Of a stretch of DNA of 5,002 bases, positions 459 through 5,002 are shown piece after piece (position 1 is the first letter of the stretch; each line of letters begins with the position of its first letter). Position numbers and translations under genes: made by a program. Under the pieces are notes generated by a model. That model was not told the origin of the DNA, made no database searches, and worked only from the letters and a program-made list of their open reading frames with translations. This DNA comes from a virus. Lineage: Duplodnaviria; Heunggongvirae; Uroviricota; Caudoviricetes. The stretch lies in IMG/VR virus record IMGVR_UViG_2675903396_000008; one strand, 5' to 3'.

Positions 459-1043
459 ATGACCACTTTTACAAAAGAGCAGTTAATCAGTCATGTTAGT
501 GAAAATGTAAAGGCGATGAAATTTGCAGTAAAACAGACAGCATTCAAAAATTCTCTCGAGGCAATTGAGTTGGATTTAGCACTGGCCCTTGTTGCTCAGG
601 CTTCGCTGGAAGCAGAGCCCGTGCTTTATATGAATCGATTTACCGGAAAGACATTCTCACTGGAAGAGCAACCCGGTGCTGATAAGGAACCGGAAATATA
701 CGTGCCGCTATATGCTGCCCCGCCAGACAGCGCCGCCATGCTTCAGGCTGGAAACTTTCGGGAAAAGAAGGGTTCGTCAACCAATAATTTTCGGGAAATC
801 TCGGAAACGTCAACCAACTATCCGGTAACTCTGGATGGTTGGATAAGCTGTAGTGAGCGAATGCCGGATGACGGTCAGCACGTAATTATTTTATGTGATG
901 GCGCATTCGTTCTTTATGCGCAATATCGAGACGGTGAGTTTTTTGATGTAGTCCGTGATGGTGATGAATTTTTCGAAACACAGAGCCGCAATGTAACCGA
1001 CTGGATGCCGCTACCAGAACCGCCGCAGGAGGTGCGCCAATGA
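459..1043 (+). CDS. Phage protein, 194 aa, C-terminal region resembling the DUF551 family (WISCSERMPDDGQHVIILCDG...)
   Basis: ATG at 459 with AAGGAG at 447-452 (6-nt spacer); stop TGA at 1041-1043. An alternative in-frame GTG at 399 has AGGAGG at 386-391 and overlaps the upstream stop (GTGA). The ORF-track start at 330 overlaps the upstream gene and is rejected. DUF551 assignment is from memory. Confidence 0.6.
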   Translation: MTTFTKEQLISHVSENVKAMKFAVKQTAFKNSLEAIELDLALALVAQASLEAEPVLYMNRFTGKTFSLEEQPGADKEPEIYVPLYAAPPDSAAMLQAGNFREKKGSSTNNFREISETSTNYPVTLDGWISCSERMPDDGQHVIILCDGAFVLYAQYRDGEFFDVVRDGDEFFETQSRNVTDWMPLPEPPQEVRQ

Positions 1044-1123
1044 ACTGGCCTGAAGCATTTGCAATTACAGGCGTTGCTATGGCTATCGCTTTTTTAGTAT
1101 ATGTTATTTGTCGGTGGGGGTAA
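1040..1123 (+). CDS. Micro-ORF, 27 aa hydrophobic peptide (MNWPEAFAITGVAMAIAFLVYVICRWG), predicted single transmembrane helix
   Basis: ATG overlaps the upstream stop (ATGA at 1040-1043); AGGAGG at 1026-1031; stop TAA at 1121-1123. Too short for statistical gene calling; supported by the SD and coupling geometry. Confidence 0.4.
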   Translation: MNWPEAFAITGVAMAIAFLVYVICRWG

Positions 1124-1158
1124 AAACGTTCGCCGGGATTAACACCAAAGGAGGGAAT

Positions 1159-1263
1159 ATGTCGGATGATATTTTACTGGCAATGGAAGGTGCGCTGGCT
1201 GTTATTGCTGTTGTGGGCGTTTACTGCCTGGTTGTGTTTTTGATGGATCGACTAGGGAACTGA
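1159..1263 (+). CDS. Micro-ORF, 34 aa hydrophobic peptide (MSDDILLAMEGALAVIAVVGVYCLVVFLMDRLGN), predicted single transmembrane helix
   Basis: ATG at 1159 preceded by AAAGGAGGG at 1147-1155; stop TGA at 1261-1263. Confidence 0.45.
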   Translation: MSDDILLAMEGALAVIAVVGVYCLVVFLMDRLGN

Positions 1264-1271
1264 ATTCATTA

Positions 1272-1293
1272 CGATATGGGAATTCCCATATCG
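1272..1293. promoter_or_regulatory. Perfect 22-bp palindrome CGATATGGGAATTCCCATATCG; candidate operator for a dimeric DNA-binding protein, or an RNA hairpin
   Basis: Read directly from the sequence: the two 11-nt halves are exact reverse complements, centred on GAATTC. No T-run follows, so it is not a classical intrinsic terminator. It sits between the second micro-ORF and the hok locus. Confidence 0.5.
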
Positions 1294-1305
1294 GGTAAAA
1301 ACGGT

Positions 1306-1333
1306 TTGCGGTAAAGCGAGAGTTAAGTAGAAT
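1306..1333 (+). promoter_or_regulatory. Candidate promoter for the mok/hok mRNA (-35 TTGCGG at 1306-1311, 16-nt spacer, -10 TAGAAT at 1328-1333)
   Basis: Hexamer match only. A start near 1340 together with the terminator at 1733-1754 would give a transcript of roughly 400 nt, in line with known hok mRNAs. Confidence 0.25.
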
Positions 1334-1394
1334 TGCTGCGGGTGCTTGAGGCTATCTGCCTCGGGCATGAACACCAACGGCAGATAGAGAAAAG

Positions 1395-1460
1395 CCCCAG
1401 TTAACATTACGCGTCCGGCAAGACGCTTAACATTAATCTGAGGCCATATCTATGCTCTAC
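1395..1460 (-). ncRNA. sok: Candidate Sok-like antisense RNA covering the mok translation initiation region; boundaries approximate
   Basis: Inference from hok/sok architecture. A minus-strand promoter-like pair (-35 TTGCCT at plus 1495-1490, 17-nt spacer, -10 TAACCT at plus 1472-1467) would start transcription near 1460, antisense to the mok SD and start codon. I could not identify a terminator. Confidence 0.25.
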
Positions 1461-1664
1461 ACACGTAGGTTAGCCTCTTACGTGCCGAAAGGCAAGGAGA
1501 AGCAGGCTATGAAGCAGCAAAAGGCGATGTTAATTGCCCTGATCGTCATCTGTTTAACCGTCATAGTGACGGCACTGGTAACGAGGAAAGACCTCTGCGA
1601 GGTACGAATCCGAACCGGCCAGACGGAGGTCGCTGTCTTCACAGCTTACGAACCTGAGGAGTAA
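1452..1664 (+). CDS. mok: Mok-like leader reading frame, 70 codons, in frame with hok and ending at the same stop (N-terminal extension MLYTRRLASYVPKGKEKQA)
   Basis: ATG at 1452 is in frame with hok. The extension resembles my recollection of MokC (ML.T.R...K.KEK.AMKQ.K). In hok loci, mok translation is coupled to and required for hok translation. Confidence 0.5.
   Translation: MLYTRRLASYVPKGKEKQAMKQQKAMLIALIVICLTVIVTALVTRKDLCEVRIRTGQTEVAVFTAYEPEE
1509..1664 (+). CDS. hokD: Hok/Gef-family type I toxin, 51 aa (MKQQKAMLIALIVICLTVIVTALVTRKDLCEVRIRTGQTEVAVFTAYEPEE)
   Basis: ATG at 1509 with AAGGAGAAG just upstream; stop TAA at 1662-1664. The sequence matches my memory of E. coli HokD (RelF): single transmembrane helix, conserved C..R and TAYEP motifs. 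Family assignment is high confidence; the exact paralog is from memory. Confidence 0.85.
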   Translation: MKQQKAMLIALIVICLTVIVTALVTRKDLCEVRIRTGQTEVAVFTAYEPEE

Positions 1665-1732
1665 GAGACCAGGCGGGGGAGAAATCCCTCGCCACCTCTC
1701 ATGTGTCAGGCATCCTTAACGCACCCGCACTA

Positions 1733-1754
1733 AACCCGCTTCGGCGGGTTTTTT
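1733..1754 (+). terminator. Rho-independent terminator ending the hok transcript (stem AACCCGC / GCGGGTT, loop TTCG, T6 tail)
   Basis: Hairpin and T-run read directly from the sequence, about 70 nt after the hok stop. Confidence 0.65.
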
Positions 1755-1900
1755 GTTGCGCGCTGAATGCGCAGGGTGAAAAATAACCATATATTTGATT
1801 ATATACACAACAAAAAATAAAAGTCATTGTACCTGCACATTAAATAATCAAATATACGGCGTGAAATAAATATTTTTCAGATTAATATTTTTGTCTCTAT

Positions 1901-2152
1901 GTGGATATAACCGTTTGTACTTATAAACTCGGAGGCATCGTGGAAAAAATAAAGAAACTATTTAGTTGCAAATACGCAGTCATACGTCGTGATGACCTGT
2001 CAGTTATAGTCGAAATGGATTACTTCCCTGAAACCCCAAAATCAATGATGTATCGTAATGGTCGAAAGGCAATTTTTTTACCGATGAGGGTAAGTGACAT
2101 TATGGGAAATGATAAACTGCTGGATGAATTGCGAGTCAGAGCATCCTGTTAG
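1901..2152 (+). CDS. Small hypothetical protein, 83 aa, possibly Rem-like; alternative GTG start at 1940 gives 70 aa
   Basis: ATG at 1901 has no obvious SD; GTG at 1940 has GGAGG at 1931-1935 with a short 4-nt spacer. Stop at 2150-2152. In E. coli K-12 Qin, an 83-aa rem gene lies beside hokD, but I cannot recall its sequence, so the link rests on context and length only. Confidence 0.4.
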   Translation: MDITVCTYKLGGIVEKIKKLFSCKYAVIRRDDLSVIVEMDYFPETPKSMMYRNGRKAIFLPMRVSDIMGNDKLLDELRVRASC

Positions 2153-2823: not shown

Positions 2824-3113
2824 TGGTGGATTTACGTAAAGCGGCGCGGGGGCAGATGTGCACCGTCAGAATTCCTGGCTACTGCAATCACGATCCGGAA
2901 ACGTCTGTGCTGGCGCATTACCGACTGGCGGGAACGTGCGGAACAGCGATAAAGCCACACGATATGCAGGCAGCGATTGCCTGTAACTCATGCCACGATT
3001 TAATCGACGGGAGAGTAAAAACCAGCGATTACACCAAAGAAGAATTGCGCCTGATGCATGCAGAAGGTGTTTTTCGCACACAAGAGATCTGGAGAAAGGA
3101 CGGTTATTTATGA
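2823..3113 (+). CDS. DUF1364 / YbcO-like Cys/His-rich phage protein, 96 aa, putative nuclease
   Basis: ATG at 2823 overlaps the upstream stop; stop TGA at 3111-3113. Conserved-looking motifs RKAARG, C..RIPG.CN, ETSVLAH, IAC..CHD; length and motifs fit my recollection of DLP12 YbcO. Confidence 0.7.
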   Translation: MVDLRKAARGQMCTVRIPGYCNHDPETSVLAHYRLAGTCGTAIKPHDMQAAIACNSCHDLIDGRVKTSDYTKEELRLMHAEGVFRTQEIWRKDGYL

Positions 3114-3664
3114 TTTACCCAACGAACACAGGAAAAAGCGGAGAGCACCTTCGTCTCACCACGCTGGAAAGTGTCTGGATTCAGGGGAAACTACGTATGT
3201 GGGGGCGCTGGTCGTATATTGGCGGCGGTAAGACGGGAAATATGTTCAACCAGTTGCTGACCTCTAAAAAGCTGACAAAAACGGCAATTAACGAGGCGCT
3301 CCGGAGGATGAAAAAAGCAGGTCTGGACAAACCTAAACTTGAGGCTTTTTTGCGGGATATGATCAACGGCAAGCAAAAAAGCTGGCTGGTGCATTGTACC
3401 GATTCAGAGGCGTTAATAATCGACAGGGTTATTGGTGAAGTACTGGCAGGTTATCCCGGGCTGCTCAATGTTCTGAGTCAGCGTTATGTGGGGCGGGGGA
3501 TGACTAAGCGCAAAATGGCTGAACTGCTGAATGATGCACATCCGGAATGGAGTTTAAGAACCTGTGAAAGACGCATTGAGCATTGGCTAAAGGTGGCAGA
3601 ATTTATTTTGTACAAACCAATGGTTATGGCTTTTGGTATAGAGAAAAAAGTTATTGCTTTTTGA
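3110..3664 (+). CDS. Late-gene antitermination protein Q-like, 184 aa
   Basis: ATG at 3110 overlaps the upstream stop (ATGA); stop at 3662-3664. It sits directly upstream of a terminator and a tRNA cluster, the canonical Q position. The WG.W motif region resembles QuuD-type Q proteins as I remember them. The ORF-track start at 2990 overlaps the upstream gene and is rejected. Confidence 0.6.
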   Translation: MIYPTNTGKSGEHLRLTTLESVWIQGKLRMWGRWSYIGGGKTGNMFNQLLTSKKLTKTAINEALRRMKKAGLDKPKLEAFLRDMINGKQKSWLVHCTDSEALIIDRVIGEVLAGYPGLLNVLSQRYVGRGMTKRKMAELLNDAHPEWSLRTCERRIEHWLKVAEFILYKPMVMAFGIEKKVIAF

Positions 3665-3740
3665 CGTAAAAACTGCTTTAATTCCGGTAAGCTTAGCAAA
3701 GCTGTATCGCGAGGCGAACCAAACGCATGAACTTTACCAG
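3655..3740 (+). promoter_or_regulatory. Candidate late promoter PR' / qut region immediately after Q
   Basis: TTGACG at 3661-3666 overlaps the Q stop, as the -35 of lambda PR' does. I could not find a -10 hexamer at 16-18-nt spacing (the best, TAAGCT at 3688-3693, is 21 nt away), so this rests on position only. Confidence 0.3.
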
Positions 3741-3764
3741 AACCCGCCATTGAGCGGGTTTTTT
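3741..3764 (+). terminator. Rho-independent terminator, tR'-like (stem AACCCGC / GCGGGTT, loop CATTGA, T6 tail)
   Basis: Hairpin and T-run read directly, about 80 nt after the Q stop. Confidence 0.6.
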
Positions 3765-3803
3765 ATTGCGGAATTAATTACGGACCGTTATTATTCTGCT
3801 CCC

Positions 3804-3879
3804 GGCCCTTTAGCTCAGTGGTGAGAGCGAGCGACTCATAATCGCCAGGTCGCTGGTTCAAATCCAGCAAGGGCCACCA
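3804..3879 (+). tRNA. ileZ: tRNA-Ile2 (anticodon CAU, lysidine type), 76 nt with encoded CCA
   Basis: Cloverleaf folded by hand: 7-bp acceptor stem GGCCCTT/AAGGGCC, anticodon loop CTCATAA, T-loop TTCAAAT. Near-identical to my recollection of E. coli ileX, which makes it Ile2 rather than Met. Confidence 0.85.
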
Positions 3880-3888
3880 TATCACATA

Positions 3889-3965
3889 CCGCCATTAGCT
3901 CATCGGGACAGAGCGCCAGCCTTCGAAGCTGGCTGCGCGGGGTTCGAGCCCCCGATGGCGGTCCA
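3889..3965 (+). tRNA. argN: tRNA-Arg (anticodon UCG), 77 nt with encoded CCA
   Basis: Cloverleaf folded by hand: acceptor stem CCGCCAT/ATGGCGG, anticodon stem CCAGC/GCTGG, loop CTTCGAA, T-arm CGGGG-TTCGAGC-CCCCG. The symbol is assigned by its order in the Stx-phage ileZ-argN-argO array and is uncertain. Confidence 0.8.
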
Positions 3966-3978
3966 TTATCGGTATTCT

Positions 3979-4055
3979 GCGTTGTTAGCTCAGCCGGACA
4001 GAGCAATTGCCTTCTAAGCAATCGGTCAGTGGTTCGACTCCACTACAACGCGCCA
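3979..4055 (+). tRNA. argO: tRNA-Arg (anticodon UCU), 77 nt with encoded CCA
   Basis: Cloverleaf folded by hand: acceptor stem GCGTTGT/ACAACGC, anticodon stem ATTGC/GCAAT, loop CTTCTAA, T-loop TTCGACT. Symbol by array order, uncertain. Confidence 0.85.
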
Positions 4056-4224: not shown

Positions 4225-4531
4225 ATGTTTGGAATCTTCAAAAAGAAAACCCGCAGAGCGGCAGCGGAAATTAAAAAGTTTGAGAAACGCGATCTGGCAC
4301 AGGCGGTGATTAACGCTGCATACCTGGTGGCCTATGCAGATGGTGAATGCGAGGCATCCGAGAAAGCGAAGATCGAACAGGTCTTACGTAATCAGCCTGC
4401 GTTGTCTGCGTTTACCTCGGAAATTAATGCGATTAGCGCAACTATTATCGGTCAGCTGGATACCAATTTTAAAATTGGTCGTCGTGCCGCGTTACGCGAG
4501 ATTGAGGATGTGAAACACGATACGCGTGAAG
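4225..4531 (+). CDS. TerB-like domain protein, N-terminal 102 aa; the 3' end runs into the N-run
   Basis: ATG at 4225 with AAAGGAA at 4211-4217 (7-nt spacer). The motif AAYLVAYADGECEASEKAKIEQVL looks like the TerB tellurite-resistance fold as I remember it. The ORF-track start at 4153 has no SD. Confidence 0.55.
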
Positions 4532-4588
4532 NNNNNNNNNNNNNNNNNNNNNNNNNNNNNNNNNNNNNNNNNNNNNNNNNNNNNNNNN
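4532..4588. other. Run of 57 N: assembly gap or masked sequence
   Basis: Read directly. Coding frames on the two sides differ, so the N-run length is probably a placeholder. Confidence 0.95.
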
Positions 4589-4789: not shown

Positions 4790-4956
4790 TTTTTTTGTTT
4801 GCTGTTTATTAAAAACACTTCTGCATGGTGAATCCCCCTGTGCGGAGGGGCGATCAGCAACCAGGTATATGGGATAATCGCGGATTCAGGTGCTGATACT
4901 GAATTCACCGGGAGGCACCCGGCACCATGCAAGAAAAAGAATGTGCATGCAAACAT

Positions 4957-4980
4957 GCCCCTCTCCGGAGGGGCTTTTTT
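4957..4980 (+). terminator. Strong hairpin with T6 tail (GCCCCTC-TCCG-GAGGGGC-TTTTTT); terminator or attenuator
   Basis: Perfect 7-bp GC-rich stem read directly. The 3' arm GGAGGGG sits 7 nt before the ATG at 4981 and could serve as its SD, suggesting structure-gated translation. Confidence 0.5.
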
Positions 4981-5002
4981 ATGGGTAAAAAATGCCCGAA
5001 TG
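4981..5002 (+). CDS. 5' end of the next gene (MGKKCPN...), truncated by the window; alternative in-frame start at 4927
   Basis: ATG at 4981 follows GGAGGGG at 4968-4974. ATG at 4927 is in frame with GGAGG at 4911-4915, but that reading passes through the hairpin. Too short to identify. Confidence 0.2.

Follow-up and report, generated by a model that had tools for sequence, protein, structure and literature searches.

A 22-bp palindrome upstream of hok in a lambdoid prophage belongs by its sequence to a palindrome family housed inside KilA-N genes

Upstream of the hok toxin gene in the window, by which we mean the whole 5,002-nucleotide stretch of Caudoviricetes DNA analyzed here (IMG/VR record IMGVR_UViG_2675903396_000008), lies a perfect 22-bp palindrome, hereafter PAL. 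Judged by its sequence, PAL is a non-coding (orphan) copy of the commonest member of a family of palindromes located inside genes that encode KilA-N domains. Comparisons across genomes establish its membership in this family and show that selection acts on the nucleotide sequence of these sites, not on the peptide they encode. As for function, we tentatively regard PAL as a free-standing member of the family that would serve as an accessory double-stranded DNA docking site for a KilA-N-type dimer, a reading to which we give slightly less than an even chance.

A first-pass annotation of the window had described an exact inverted repeat at positions 1272-1293, unlikely to arise by chance. The window indeed reads CGATATGGGAATTCCCATATCG there. 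This is its longest perfect palindrome, and about 0.001 (0.0012) palindromes of at least 22 bp are expected per 5 kb; one of 2000 mononucleotide shuffles of the window reached 22 bp. Since the stop codon of micro-ORF2 occupies positions 1261-1263, PAL starts 9 nt past its last base, as had been stated, and the placement just upstream of the candidate hok promoter is equally correct. The annotation was also right that the element does not look like a terminator: neither strand has a T-run, the + strand continuing past the stem with GGTAAAAACGG and the - strand with TAATGAATTC, and a terminator scan was silent. We thus rejected an intrinsic terminator. Folded as single-stranded RNA or DNA, PAL forms a 9-bp stem with an AAUU loop, and an Rfam search found no RNA family at the site with E<=1. 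We also discarded an adapter or assembly artefact, because hundreds of E. coli genomes that were finished independently have PAL. Neither the sequence ATGGGAATTCCCAT nor the combination of KilA-N with a palindrome led to anything relevant in the literature.

Table 1. Features of the window around the palindrome
Feature	Position	Strand	Basis or remark
PAL, perfect 22-bp palindrome CGATATGGGAATTCCCATATCG	1272..1293	none	Sequence
Left flank of PAL, GAACTGAATTCATTA	1257..1271	none	From here on, L003 and L005 are homologous to the window
11-bp direct repeat GGGTAAAAACG, copy 1	1117..1127	none	Overlaps the micro-ORF1 stop
11-bp direct repeat GGGTAAAAACG, copy 2	1293..1303	none	Starts on the G that ends PAL
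micro-ORF1, 27-aa hydrophobic peptide	1040..1123	+	Kept directly upstream of hok in 933W-type prophages
micro-ORF2, 34-aa hydrophobic peptide	1159..1263	+	Hypothetical protein WP_001278450.1 in EDL933
Inferred hok promoter, TTGCGG, 16-nt spacer, TAGAAT	1306-1311, 1328-1333	+	Read relative to the Rfam start at 1340
hok mRNA 5' leader (tac element, mok start)	1340..1514	+	Rfam RF01794 sok, 111.7 bits, E 1e-25
Sok antisense RNA	1390..1460	-	Homology: 933W sokW misc_RNA (L002 1595-1665) via alignment offset
mok and hok, same frame, type I toxin	1452-1664 (mok), 1509-1664 (hok)	+	Homologues annotated hokD / mokW / hokW
Intrinsic terminator of the hok mRNA	1732..1751	+	Terminator scan

The surroundings of PAL are listed in Table 1. 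We placed the start of the hok mRNA near position 1340 because the Rfam sok/hok-leader model begins there; the leader overlaps the antisense sok gene, and PAL, ending at 1293, lies outside both the mRNA and sok. The -35 and -10 elements (TTGCGG/TAGAAT) were not flagged by a consensus scan and are conserved in all the hok loci compared. With the -35 element read at 1306-1311, PAL ends 12 nt upstream of it and its centre falls near -57. Together with micro-ORF2, PAL makes up a small cassette, which one genome carries without a downstream hok. In 933W-type loci the stop of micro-ORF1, ...GATAAAAACGGTTTGCGG, runs straight into the hok promoter, and the 176 bp between the two copies of the 11-bp repeat, with micro-ORF2 and PAL, are therefore absent. 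On its left side, paa-linked prophages (PPompW type) have the flank GAACTGAATTCATTA together with PAL and hok. Compared by eye, this flank agrees at 9 of 14 bases with the reverse-complemented stretch that immediately follows the palindrome on its 3' side in KilA-N genes, a weak hint of descent from such a gene that is not significant alone. A degraded remnant of such a gene was rejected: this one-sided 9/14 match is all that the flanks of the window offer, and other orphans have none.

The exact 22-mer is far from confined to this locus. It has 63 matches in GTDB species genomes, where 0.03 would be expected (about 2000-fold above expectation), and occurs in at least 120 IMG/VR contigs, in unrelated contexts that range from 27 to 70% GC. 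Among the GTDB matches, 38 of the 63 fall inside KilA-N ORFs (Pfam PF04383, E values from 4.8e-27 to 3.8e-19), where all copies begin at one shared alignment column. This position lies about 170 nt inside the ORF, 9 codons past an LRLKST motif and about 61 nt before the codons for QGTW. The copy in the window is off that position, and the window encodes no KilA-N protein. Being intergenic, with no KilA-N ORF in the window or in neighbouring prophage DNA, it was filed as an orphan.

Within KilA-N genes the 22-mer is read in two frames, as D-M-G-I-P-I-S and as R-Y-G-N-S-H-I, and so is a second family member, GAAACGGGAATTCCCGTTTC. The second frame is backed by six GTDB genomes and by one further locus (L409) with a different palindrome; a search for second-frame covariation in viral contigs gave nothing with a first pattern and only chance matches with a second. 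In Bacteroidota KilA-N genes the same DNA encodes a different peptide, and the encoded peptide therefore cannot itself define the specificity. Placing the heptapeptide between helix B and the wing is tentative, since the alignment of KilA-N with Mbp1 is weak (E 0.008).

To describe the family without reference to one sequence, we drew an unbiased sample of KilA-N genes by scanning for the codons of QGTWVHP, which gave 86 unique genes. A perfect 22-nt palindrome is present in 23 of the 86 and one with 10 of 11 pairs in 22 of them; 52% have at least 10 of 11 pairs, mostly 61 nt upstream of QGTW, whereas control windows in the same genes never exceed 8 of 11. About 27 different sequences fill the site. 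They share a 22-nt dyad, a GGRATYCC-type core, CG ends and variable arms, and the PAL of the window matches the commonest of them at 22 of 22 positions (7 unique genes of the unbiased sample, besides the 38 GTDB KilA-N ORFs). Other members of the family are CGAAACGGGAATTCCCGTTTCG and CGATATCGGAATTCCGATATCG.

The sites covary in a manner that preserves the dyad. Overall, 87% of the cells are paired, against 72% in shuffles, and eight of nine pairs vary on both sides. The covariation score of 0.38 was reached by none of 500 shuffles, which give 0.15, and slid controls score at most 0.09. Codon usage is constrained accordingly: the Pro codon at the site is only CCC (35) or CCG (17), a choice that matches exactly the third base of the paired codon (G in 35, C in 17); GGA accounts for 40 of 52 codons at the Gly position, whereas a control Gly codon uses all four; and 45 of 52 genes have TCG or ACG for Ser/Thr. 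The centre of the palindrome is self-complementary (AATT, ATAT or TATA) in both reading frames. Among mismatches, sense G.T (12) is not in excess over A.C (17).

In Proteobacteria the genes that carry these palindromes encode proteins of the BstA family (phrog_6287, E 2e-83; PADLOC BstA C-terminal domain, E 3.5e-21), and some KilA-N genes that bear PAL lack the BstA C-terminal domain. Examples of the PAL-type KilA-N/BstA-like proteins are URE76544.1 of phage vB_EcoS-613R10 and XSB41358.1 of PhiR5_2. In E. coli prophages BstA-like genes are neighbours of cI; the gene directly follows cI in phage PhiR5_2 and occurs in 139 of 5426 E. coli genomes. The BstA abortive-infection system is neutralized by a short DNA element, aba, in its own locus; aba works as DNA and not as RNA or peptide, is specific to the cognate BstA variant and protects any phage that bears it (Owen et al. 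2021, PMC8585504). The only aba that has been mapped is that of BTP1, those of BstA-Ec and BstA-Kp being unmapped (PMC8585504). The likeness to the palindrome family lies in the location inside BstA-like genes, in a sequence that differs by variant and in copies on other phages. However, the aba of BTP1 is a non-palindromic 63-bp element that spans the bstA start and needs its terminal CCCGCC direct repeats, whereas PAL is a palindrome, and the two have no similarity in sequence or position. The BstA of BTP1 has a different N-terminal domain and its gene has no such palindrome. We thus rejected the identity of PAL with the published element. While family members sit inside BstA-like genes, the copy in the window is outside any bstA locus, and no KilA-N/BstA-like gene was found near hok in any of 173 loci, with or without PAL, within the approximately 7 kb of flanks that were fetched.

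Orphan copies occur widely in non-coding phage DNA. One occupies the moron slot among head genes where HK639 carries a micro-ORF, and another lies in the nin region of Hafnia phage Pocitis76, with no hok. Virulent Dhillonviruses carry it next to an iteron-rich region, between 32-bp duplicated copies of the target, with filled and empty alleles: about 63% keep PAL and about 36% are empty, with welsh, KarlBarth and PaulFeyerabend among the filled phages and HK578 and TheodorHerzl among the empty ones. Some orphans form arrays of different family members, with four within 175 bp in one locus (L142) and two adjacent in another (L178). PAL occurs at 1-4 copies per E. coli genome (median 4 places, maximum 15, where each palindrome counts on both strands), and one O157 strain has four orphans. 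Many orphans stand just after stop codons, a location that equally fits a role as an RNA hairpin, and mosaic breakpoints cluster around PAL with no uniform signature of insertion. ARAGORN found no tRNA in the context of two of the loci (L152 and L182). Decay is visible as deletion derivatives at hok and as one-sided central changes in Dhillonviruses. As orphans are often lost or decayed, selection on them is weak or fluctuating.

The first-pass annotation had implied a link between the palindrome and the hok promoter, with the HTH-containing protein at 10-402 as a speculative partner. In its general form, a nearby-encoded dimeric regulator, such as this DUF977 protein (Pfam), would bind PAL as a local operator and control the hok promoter or the flanking genes. 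PAL is dyad-symmetric, with its centre about 57 nt before the point where the hok mRNA begins, and DUF977 has HTH-like matches, albeit weak and below the Pfam cut-offs. Yet the association with hok is loose. Of 5426 E. coli genomes, 977 have PAL in front of hok, but in a hok-anchored sample of 120 viral stretches, drawn without regard to the presence of a palindrome, about 32 have an exact PAL, about 11 a near-PAL and about 77 none. It is thus missing at about 64% of the sampled loci, including hokW of 933W. The spacing to the -35 element varies from 12 nt in the window to 30 nt in another hok lineage (L023/L112). Some prophages have PAL and hok with paa upstream in place of DUF977/DUF551, which speaks against the proposed partner, and PAL is also found in hok-free contexts, virulent phages and other phyla. 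A search with the half-site CGATATGGGAA, which the annotation had suggested, gave no further copy in the window (at most one mismatch) or in the EDL933 homologue, so a local operator lacks a second site in the window. Homologous prophages without PAL, which the annotation had named as a refutation, thus exist and refute a role specific to hok. PAL is probably not part of the hok/sok control circuit, and a local operator seems extremely unlikely.

A stem of 9 bp with an AAUU loop could instead act as RNA, at the 3' end of a micro-ORF2 message transcribed from the upstream early or nin operon. There it would protect the upstream mRNA from 3' exonucleases, be cut by RNase III or otherwise processed, or keep read-through transcription out of hok/sok; in KilA-N genes its task would be to adjust translation or mRNA decay. 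The predicted hairpin is stable (region MFE -22 kcal/mol, z -4.5), and many orphans lie 2-20 nt past the stops of co-directional genes, as in the window, five other loci (L127, L119, L032, L024 and L023), Pocitis76 and the Dhillonvirus helicase-primase gene. Base-pair covariation would be equally expected of an RNA stem. This reading does not account for the self-complementarity of the four central bases in two frames, which a hairpin loop does not need, nor for the arrays of different palindromes in non-coding DNA; there is no U-run and no Rfam family at the site, and the non-Watson-Crick cells (sense G.U 12, A.C 17) lack an excess of G.U. We consider it unlikely. We are similarly doubtful of a functionless scar or recombination hotspot, in which lambdoid mosaic exchange, through illegitimate or short-homology recombination, brought in a copy of the 22-mer from a KilA-N gene, and this copy persisted neutrally, perhaps promoting further exchange as a cruciform or hairpin. 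The locus does have the marks of exchange: paa-linked homology starts 15 nt left of PAL, L023 differs on both sides at the edges of PAL, the 11-bp direct repeat brackets micro-ORF2 and PAL, and deletion derivatives between short repeats (ATT..ATT, CAT..CAT) were found. The 32-bp duplications in Dhillonviruses and the frequent absence of PAL fit as well. However, more than 15 unrelated contexts and phyla have the identical 22-mer, cut off at exactly the same ends, and so many independent exact acquisitions are hard to explain without selection or an active mechanism. A scar would also not predict the compensatory variant upstream of hok (CGATGCGGGACTTCCCACATCG, where A5G is paired with T18C), the arrays of different members, or the retention of PAL in about 63% of Dhillonviruses despite flanking repeats that ease its deletion.

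PAL could also be a mobile mini-element, either the joined ends of a transposon (two 11-bp terminal inverted repeats that excision left behind) or a hairpin of the REP kind mobilized by an HUH/Y1 enzyme. The same palindrome does occur at many unrelated sites, in-frame in unrelated ORFs at six loci (L125, L072, L130, L153, L158 and L191), and filled and empty alleles exist. But there is no constant target duplication: the two copies of the 11-bp repeat here are separated by 176 bp, Dhillonviruses have a 32-bp duplication, and a segment is replaced relative to HK639. The 1-4 copies per genome contrast with the tens to hundreds of REP/REPIN; we saw no full-length element that these ends would bound; and long-term covariation at a fixed KilA-N position is not how transposons behave. 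We find this very unlikely. A transposable element, a MITE or an excision footprint was likewise rejected, as the flanking repeats are inconsistent and no longer element has these ends. Finally, scanning many 5-kb windows will occasionally yield 22 bp, as one shuffle in 2000 did, but a sequence that recurs about 2000-fold above expectation across phyla, within a covarying family, leaves a meaningless chance palindrome with practically no probability.

Several known systems resemble PAL in part. The iterons of the lambda origin lie inside the O gene, as dyad-symmetric sites within the gene of the protein that binds them, and they covary with specificity among related phages. The layout, a site inside its own gene, is that of the PAL family, but lambda has four tandem 19-bp iterons with an AT-rich region in a replication origin, whereas PAL is one 22-bp site with orphan copies elsewhere. 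REP/BIME are short palindromes found after stops between co-directional genes, can stabilize the upstream mRNA and vary between strains. PAL shares the post-stop intercistronic location and the gain or loss between strains. Yet REP are imperfect, have a GTAG head, number hundreds per genome and are species-specific, whereas PAL is perfect, lacks GTAG, numbers 1-4 per E. coli genome and has the same sequence in different phyla, so we rejected REP/BIME and REPIN. Rickettsia palindromic elements (RPE), the subject of a study by Ogata and colleagues in 2000, are reportedly selfish DNA inserted in-frame in protein genes. Like PAL they occur both in ORFs, where they are translated and tolerated, and in non-coding DNA, but they measure 100-150 bp and are found in many genes of one genus, whereas PAL has 22 bp, a fixed position in one domain family and compensatory evolution. 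Phage palindromes are also known to trigger Lamassu/DdmABC, by which the host senses any palindrome able to form a hairpin, to the disadvantage of the phage (Robins et al. 2024, PMC11707656). These too are short hairpin-forming phage palindromes relevant to defence, but nothing in that system suggests sequence-specific conservation or a home in a gene family, unlike PAL.

A site bound by a dimeric protein, which the first-pass annotation had put forward, remains the best reading of these data, given that the dyad of the family, its centre included, is kept by compensatory changes; the missing excess of RNA-type G.U mismatches also points to a site read as DNA. PAL is probably a protein-docking site carried by phages, because the identical palindrome is kept base-for-base inside KilA-N genes of many phyla. 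A symmetric dimer would bind it in double-stranded form, and the likeliest candidate for this partner would be a KilA-N domain protein of matching specificity, since this is the only factor that travels with PAL from Cyanobacteria to Proteobacteria. The PAL that separates micro-ORF2 from the hok promoter may have entered the lambdoid prophage together with a small moron cassette, or beside one. Through this orphan the phage genome would then be able to engage PAL-type KilA-N proteins that another prophage, co-resident or competing, produces, with the possible outcomes that the protein is titrated by PAL or that PAL is recognized as 'self'. A bolder extension, which we think rather unlikely, is that the palindromes are the cognate DNA ligands of KilA-N domains, retained in the genes of effectors such as BstA-like abortive-infection proteins as inbuilt tags of self-immunity or of 'self', like a second, palindromic kind of aba, and that the orphans are counter-defence decoys. 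Candidate decoys would be PAL upstream of hok in STEC prophages, the Dhillonvirus copies and the arrays of several palindromes, and they would permit phage replication in cells armed with the matching KilA-N effector.

Whatever its function, the palindrome is a case of unusual selection at the nucleotide level, a coding-region palindrome kept base-for-base across phyla, in two frames and with compensatory evolution. If our reading is true, a candidate recognition site for KilA-N, a very common DNA-binding domain of phages, could be read directly off the gene that encodes the domain, and the family would amount to a table of natural specificity variants. The self-immunity of BstA/aba would have a testable candidate for most BstA-like genes, namely those with a canonical KilA-N domain. 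Likewise, 22-bp non-coding 'morons' of temperate and virulent coliphages, among them the copies in STEC prophages and in BASEL-type Dhillonviruses, would be anti-defence elements acting at the level of DNA, a class that is invisible to protein-centred screens.

The sequence CGATATGGGAATTCCCATATCG is a perfect 22-bp palindrome (hereafter PAL), and the window contains no longer one. Palindromes of this length are expected ~0.0012 times per 5 kb, and 22 bp was reached in 1 of 2000 shuffles. The first-pass annotation was thus right to regard PAL as improbable by chance: it is real and non-random. Its position just upstream of the hok promoter was also confirmed, since PAL begins 9 nt past the stop of micro-ORF2 and, with the promoter as read here, ends 12 nt upstream of the hok -35. 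The sok/hok-leader match places the start of the hok mRNA near 1340. As initially noted, PAL does not resemble a terminator: no T-run follows it and a terminator scan of the window makes no call there. Further copies of the half-site, which the first-pass annotation had proposed to look for, are absent from the rest of the window. The whole stretch is of the lambdoid prophage nin type, and the PAL region is 100% identical in E. coli O157:H7 EDL933 and many other STEC genomes. Clusters of tRNA genes downstream of Q, as found here, are known from Stx-type lambdoid prophages.

Features of the window in order of position
Feature	Position	Strand	Remarks
DUF977	10-402
DUF551	459-1043
micro-ORF1
11-bp direct repeat, left copy	1117-1127
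micro-ORF2	1159-1263
PAL	1272-1293
11-bp direct repeat, right copy	1293-1303
hok promoter, TTGCGG	1306-1311		read from sequence
hok promoter, TAGAAT	1328-1333		read from sequence
sok/hok-leader	1340-1514		Rfam model match, 111.7 bits
AT-rich 19-nt inverted repeat	1787-1805 / 1841-1859		89% complementary, arms 35 nt apart; promoter-like region 5' of the 83-aa ORF
83-aa ORF	1901-2152		no Pfam match
DUF1367
YbcO
Q-type antiterminator
three tRNA genes	3804-4055	+	Met (cat), Arg (tcg), Arg (tct)
N run (masked sequence)	4532-4588		splits an ORF
STnc100 sRNA family	4794-4986	+	full-length Rfam RF02076 match, 145.8 bits, E 2e-33

PAL is dispensable for hok. Many prophages, 933W (hokW) among them, have the micro-ORF1 stop (...GATAAAAACGGTTTGCGG) fused straight to the hok promoter and lack a 176-bp segment that contains micro-ORF2 and PAL. 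The window has the 11-bp direct repeat GGGTAAAAACG on either side of this segment, which suggests that the segment was gained or lost via short-homology recombination. Searching with the hok promoter as anchor, and hence without regard to PAL, gave at least 120 viral stretches; among the 120 listed, whose frequencies are those of a sample, ~32 have the exact PAL, ~10 differ from it at 1-2 positions, one more is a variant in which both bases of a pair have changed in compensation, and ~77 lack it, 933W hokW included. Hence, PAL is not a constant feature of otherwise homologous prophages, as its proposed regulatory role would have had it. Two kinds of deletion derivative retain the right arm only. 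In PPompW-type prophages, which have paa upstream, homology to the window starts just 15 nt left of PAL, and in another hok lineage PAL follows an ORF6N gene, with both flanks different and with 30 nt instead of 12 nt between it and the -35. One E. coli genome has micro-ORF2 and PAL, with one central mismatch, next to other genes in place of hok. Since absence, spacing and flanks vary in this way, an operator role specific to hok is unlikely.

The exact 22-mer is found far beyond hok. At least 120 IMG/VR stretches contain it; among those listed, 84 have the hok promoter and there are at least 15 further contexts, from 27 to 66% GC. In GTDB, scanned with one genome per species, we found 63 stretches where 0.03 were expected, in Cyanobacteria, Bacteroidota, Alpha-, Beta- and Gammaproteobacteria, Spirochaetes, Chloroflexi, Bacillota and others. 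In 38 of these 63, PAL lies inside a KilA-N ORF (Pfam, E 4.8e-27 to 3.8e-19) and starts at a constant alignment column, nine residues past the LRLKST motif. It is translated as D-M-G-I-P-I-S in most phyla and as R-Y-G-N-S-H-I in six Bacteroidota genomes, the second frame of the family being based on seven genes. That a single DNA sequence keeps its place in the domain while being read in two frames reveals selection on nucleotides rather than on the peptide. Aligned weakly (E 0.008) to yeast Mbp1, the heptapeptide tentatively falls into a gap that separates the wing from the recognition helix region. The 22-mer is also in frame as D-M-G-I-P-I-S in unrelated long ORFs of six comparison stretches (L125, L072, L130, L153, L158 and L191), in linker-like parts such as the N-terminus of an ASCH-like protein or a 1988-aa Azospirillum ORF.

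To sample KilA-N genes without selecting for the palindrome, we retrieved them via their QGTWVHP codons. Among the 86 unique genes listed, 23 have a perfect 22-nt palindrome and 22 have one with 10 of 11 pairs, mostly exactly 61 nt upstream of the QGTW codons, whereas control windows of the same genes reach at most 8 of 11. The site holds ~27 different sequences, e.g. CGATATCGGAATTCCGATATCG, CGAAACGGGAATTCCCGTTTCG, CGATGTCGGAATTCCGACATCG, CGTTGTGCAAATTTGCACAACG and GGAAACGGGATATCCCGTTTCC. In an alignment of 47 sequences, 87% of the cells pair (72% after shuffling), and both sides change in 8 of the 9 pairs. The covariation score is 0.38, which 0 of 500 shuffles reach (0.15 for shuffled alignments), and it does not exceed 0.09 when the partner is displaced by 1-3 columns. 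Synonymous sites in the codons are fixed in the way that keeps the dyad: the Pro codon is only CCC (35) or CCG (17), exactly matching the third base of the paired codon, Gly is GGA in 40 of 52 genes while a control Gly uses all four codons, and Ser/Thr is TCG or ACG in 45 of 52. The genes with a covarying palindrome are in L035, L044, L058, L064, L073, L113, L129-L190 and L194-L296. A second member, GAAACGGGAATTCCCGTTTC, occurs inside KilA-N genes from 27 to 58% GC, once in the other frame, and also as orphans, i.e. free-standing copies outside such genes. Two of its carriers (L413, L415) are contigs labelled GVMAG, binned as giant viruses. In the KilA-N gene of a 27% GC contig (L419, ~1970-2020), it stands in tandem with TATGGGAATTCCCATA, which doubles the encoded xGIPx peptide.

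Among the cells that do not pair, sense-strand G.T (12) is not in excess over A.C (17), and the four central bases, the would-be hairpin loop, stay self-complementary (AATT, ATAT, TATA) in both frames. A dyad in double-stranded DNA, bound by a symmetric dimer, thus fits better than an RNA stem-loop, and we infer that PAL acts in this form. A hairpin ending the micro-ORF2 message is unlikely on these two counts, although the predicted stem-loop is stable and many orphans directly follow stop codons.

The proteobacterial carriers are BstA-family proteins, with a KilA-N N-terminal and a BstA C-terminal domain (phrog_6287, E 2e-83; PADLOC BstA, E 3.5e-21). Their gene is present in 139 of 5426 complete E. 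coli genomes and directly follows cI in phage PhiR5_2, a position matching that of bstA in BTP1. BstA, a prophage protein of the abortive-infection type, blocks the replication of phage DNA and is neutralised, in a variant-specific manner, by aba, a short DNA element within the bstA locus (PMC8585504). PAL is not the published aba, which has been mapped for BTP1 only and not for the E. coli or Klebsiella homologues: that aba, a 63-bp element with direct repeats, lies at the start of the gene, whereas PAL is a palindrome inside the gene, and BTP1 BstA has a different N-terminal domain, without the palindrome. PAL goes with the KilA-N domain and not with the BstA C-terminal domain, since it is also found in cyanobacterial and Bacteroidota KilA-N genes whose C-terminal regions are different. 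Phage vB_EcoS-613R10 (L192) has an exact PAL in a BstA-like KilA-N gene (3109-3882), ~340 bp from a divergent hok locus (~4225-4524) without its own orphan.

Orphans occur in ~18% of E. coli genomes, usually in 1-4 copies, and no KilA-N gene was found within ~7 kb of any of 173 hok loci. In an HK639-like phage (L127, ~290-320), PAL occupies a head-gene intergenic slot that in HK639 (L298, ~830-950) is taken by a 38-aa membrane micro-ORF; the spot appears to be one where tiny morons replace each other. Hafnia phage Pocitis76 has PAL in its nin region after DUF1367, without hok, and Providencia redjacviruses have an imperfect copy near cos. Many virulent E. coli Dhillonviruses carry PAL ~20 nt past the helicase-primase stop, next to an origin-like region rich in iterons (TGTCCCGC x8, GCAACCAAT boxes). 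HK578 (L408) and ~36% of Dhillonvirus relatives are 54 bp shorter there than filled alleles such as welsh (L402, 2469-2554), the difference being PAL plus a second copy of a 32-bp target; in Teewinot (L401, 2380-2640) the unit is amplified five-fold, as five tandem partial copies. Four different members (GTTGTGGGAATTCTCACAAC, GAAACGGGAATTCCCGTTTC, PAL and GTTGCAGGAATTCCCGCAAC) lie within 175 bp of non-coding DNA in an Alcaligenaceae MAG (L142, 2529-2704), between two ORFs without Pfam match, and L186 has a second, partial copy of this array. Pairs of members in non-coding DNA are adjacent in a Tolypothrix genome and 335 bp apart in one viral contig. In Xenorhabdus beddingii (L147, L159), orphan PAL is part of a larger repeat with similar ~90-nt flanks. 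Two Alcaligenaceae MAG contigs (L152, L182) share their first 22 nt, after which come PAL and the tRNA T-arm-like GGTTCGAGTCCCGC; ARAGORN found no tRNA there.

The window PAL is therefore an orphan copy of a nucleotide-selected palindrome family living inside KilA-N genes. Since no factor other than the KilA-N protein goes along with the element in hosts so diverse, this protein is the most plausible binding partner. Lambda O provides an architectural precedent for such a site: it binds ori within the gene that encodes it. Orphans on other phages might titrate KilA-N effectors, BstA-like proteins for example, or be recognised by them. Such a role as decoy or in immunity is attractive because aba is a direct precedent, and it would also fit the arrays, with their different palindromes, and the gains and losses among virulent phages; it is a tentative possibility.

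A neutral recombination scar or hotspot, for which the 11-bp repeats and the Dhillonvirus target duplication may speak, is doubtful to a similar degree; the compensatory variant at hok and the arrays of different members count against it. A mobile mini-element would be consistent with the many contexts and the filled and empty alleles, and is quite improbable. Even less credible is a local operator of hok, or one bound by DUF977, the protein first suggested as a possible partner: PAL does lie 12 nt from the -35, but hok loci commonly do without it. Chance is practically negligible given the expected counts.

We found no description of PAL or of a conserved KilA-N-gene palindrome in the searchable literature, whose coverage is incomplete. 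The family would be a further case of a familiar type of element, the cis-acting dyad site carried within its own gene, here accompanied by orphans that resemble aba. What is surprising is its base-for-base conservation across phyla and reading frames.
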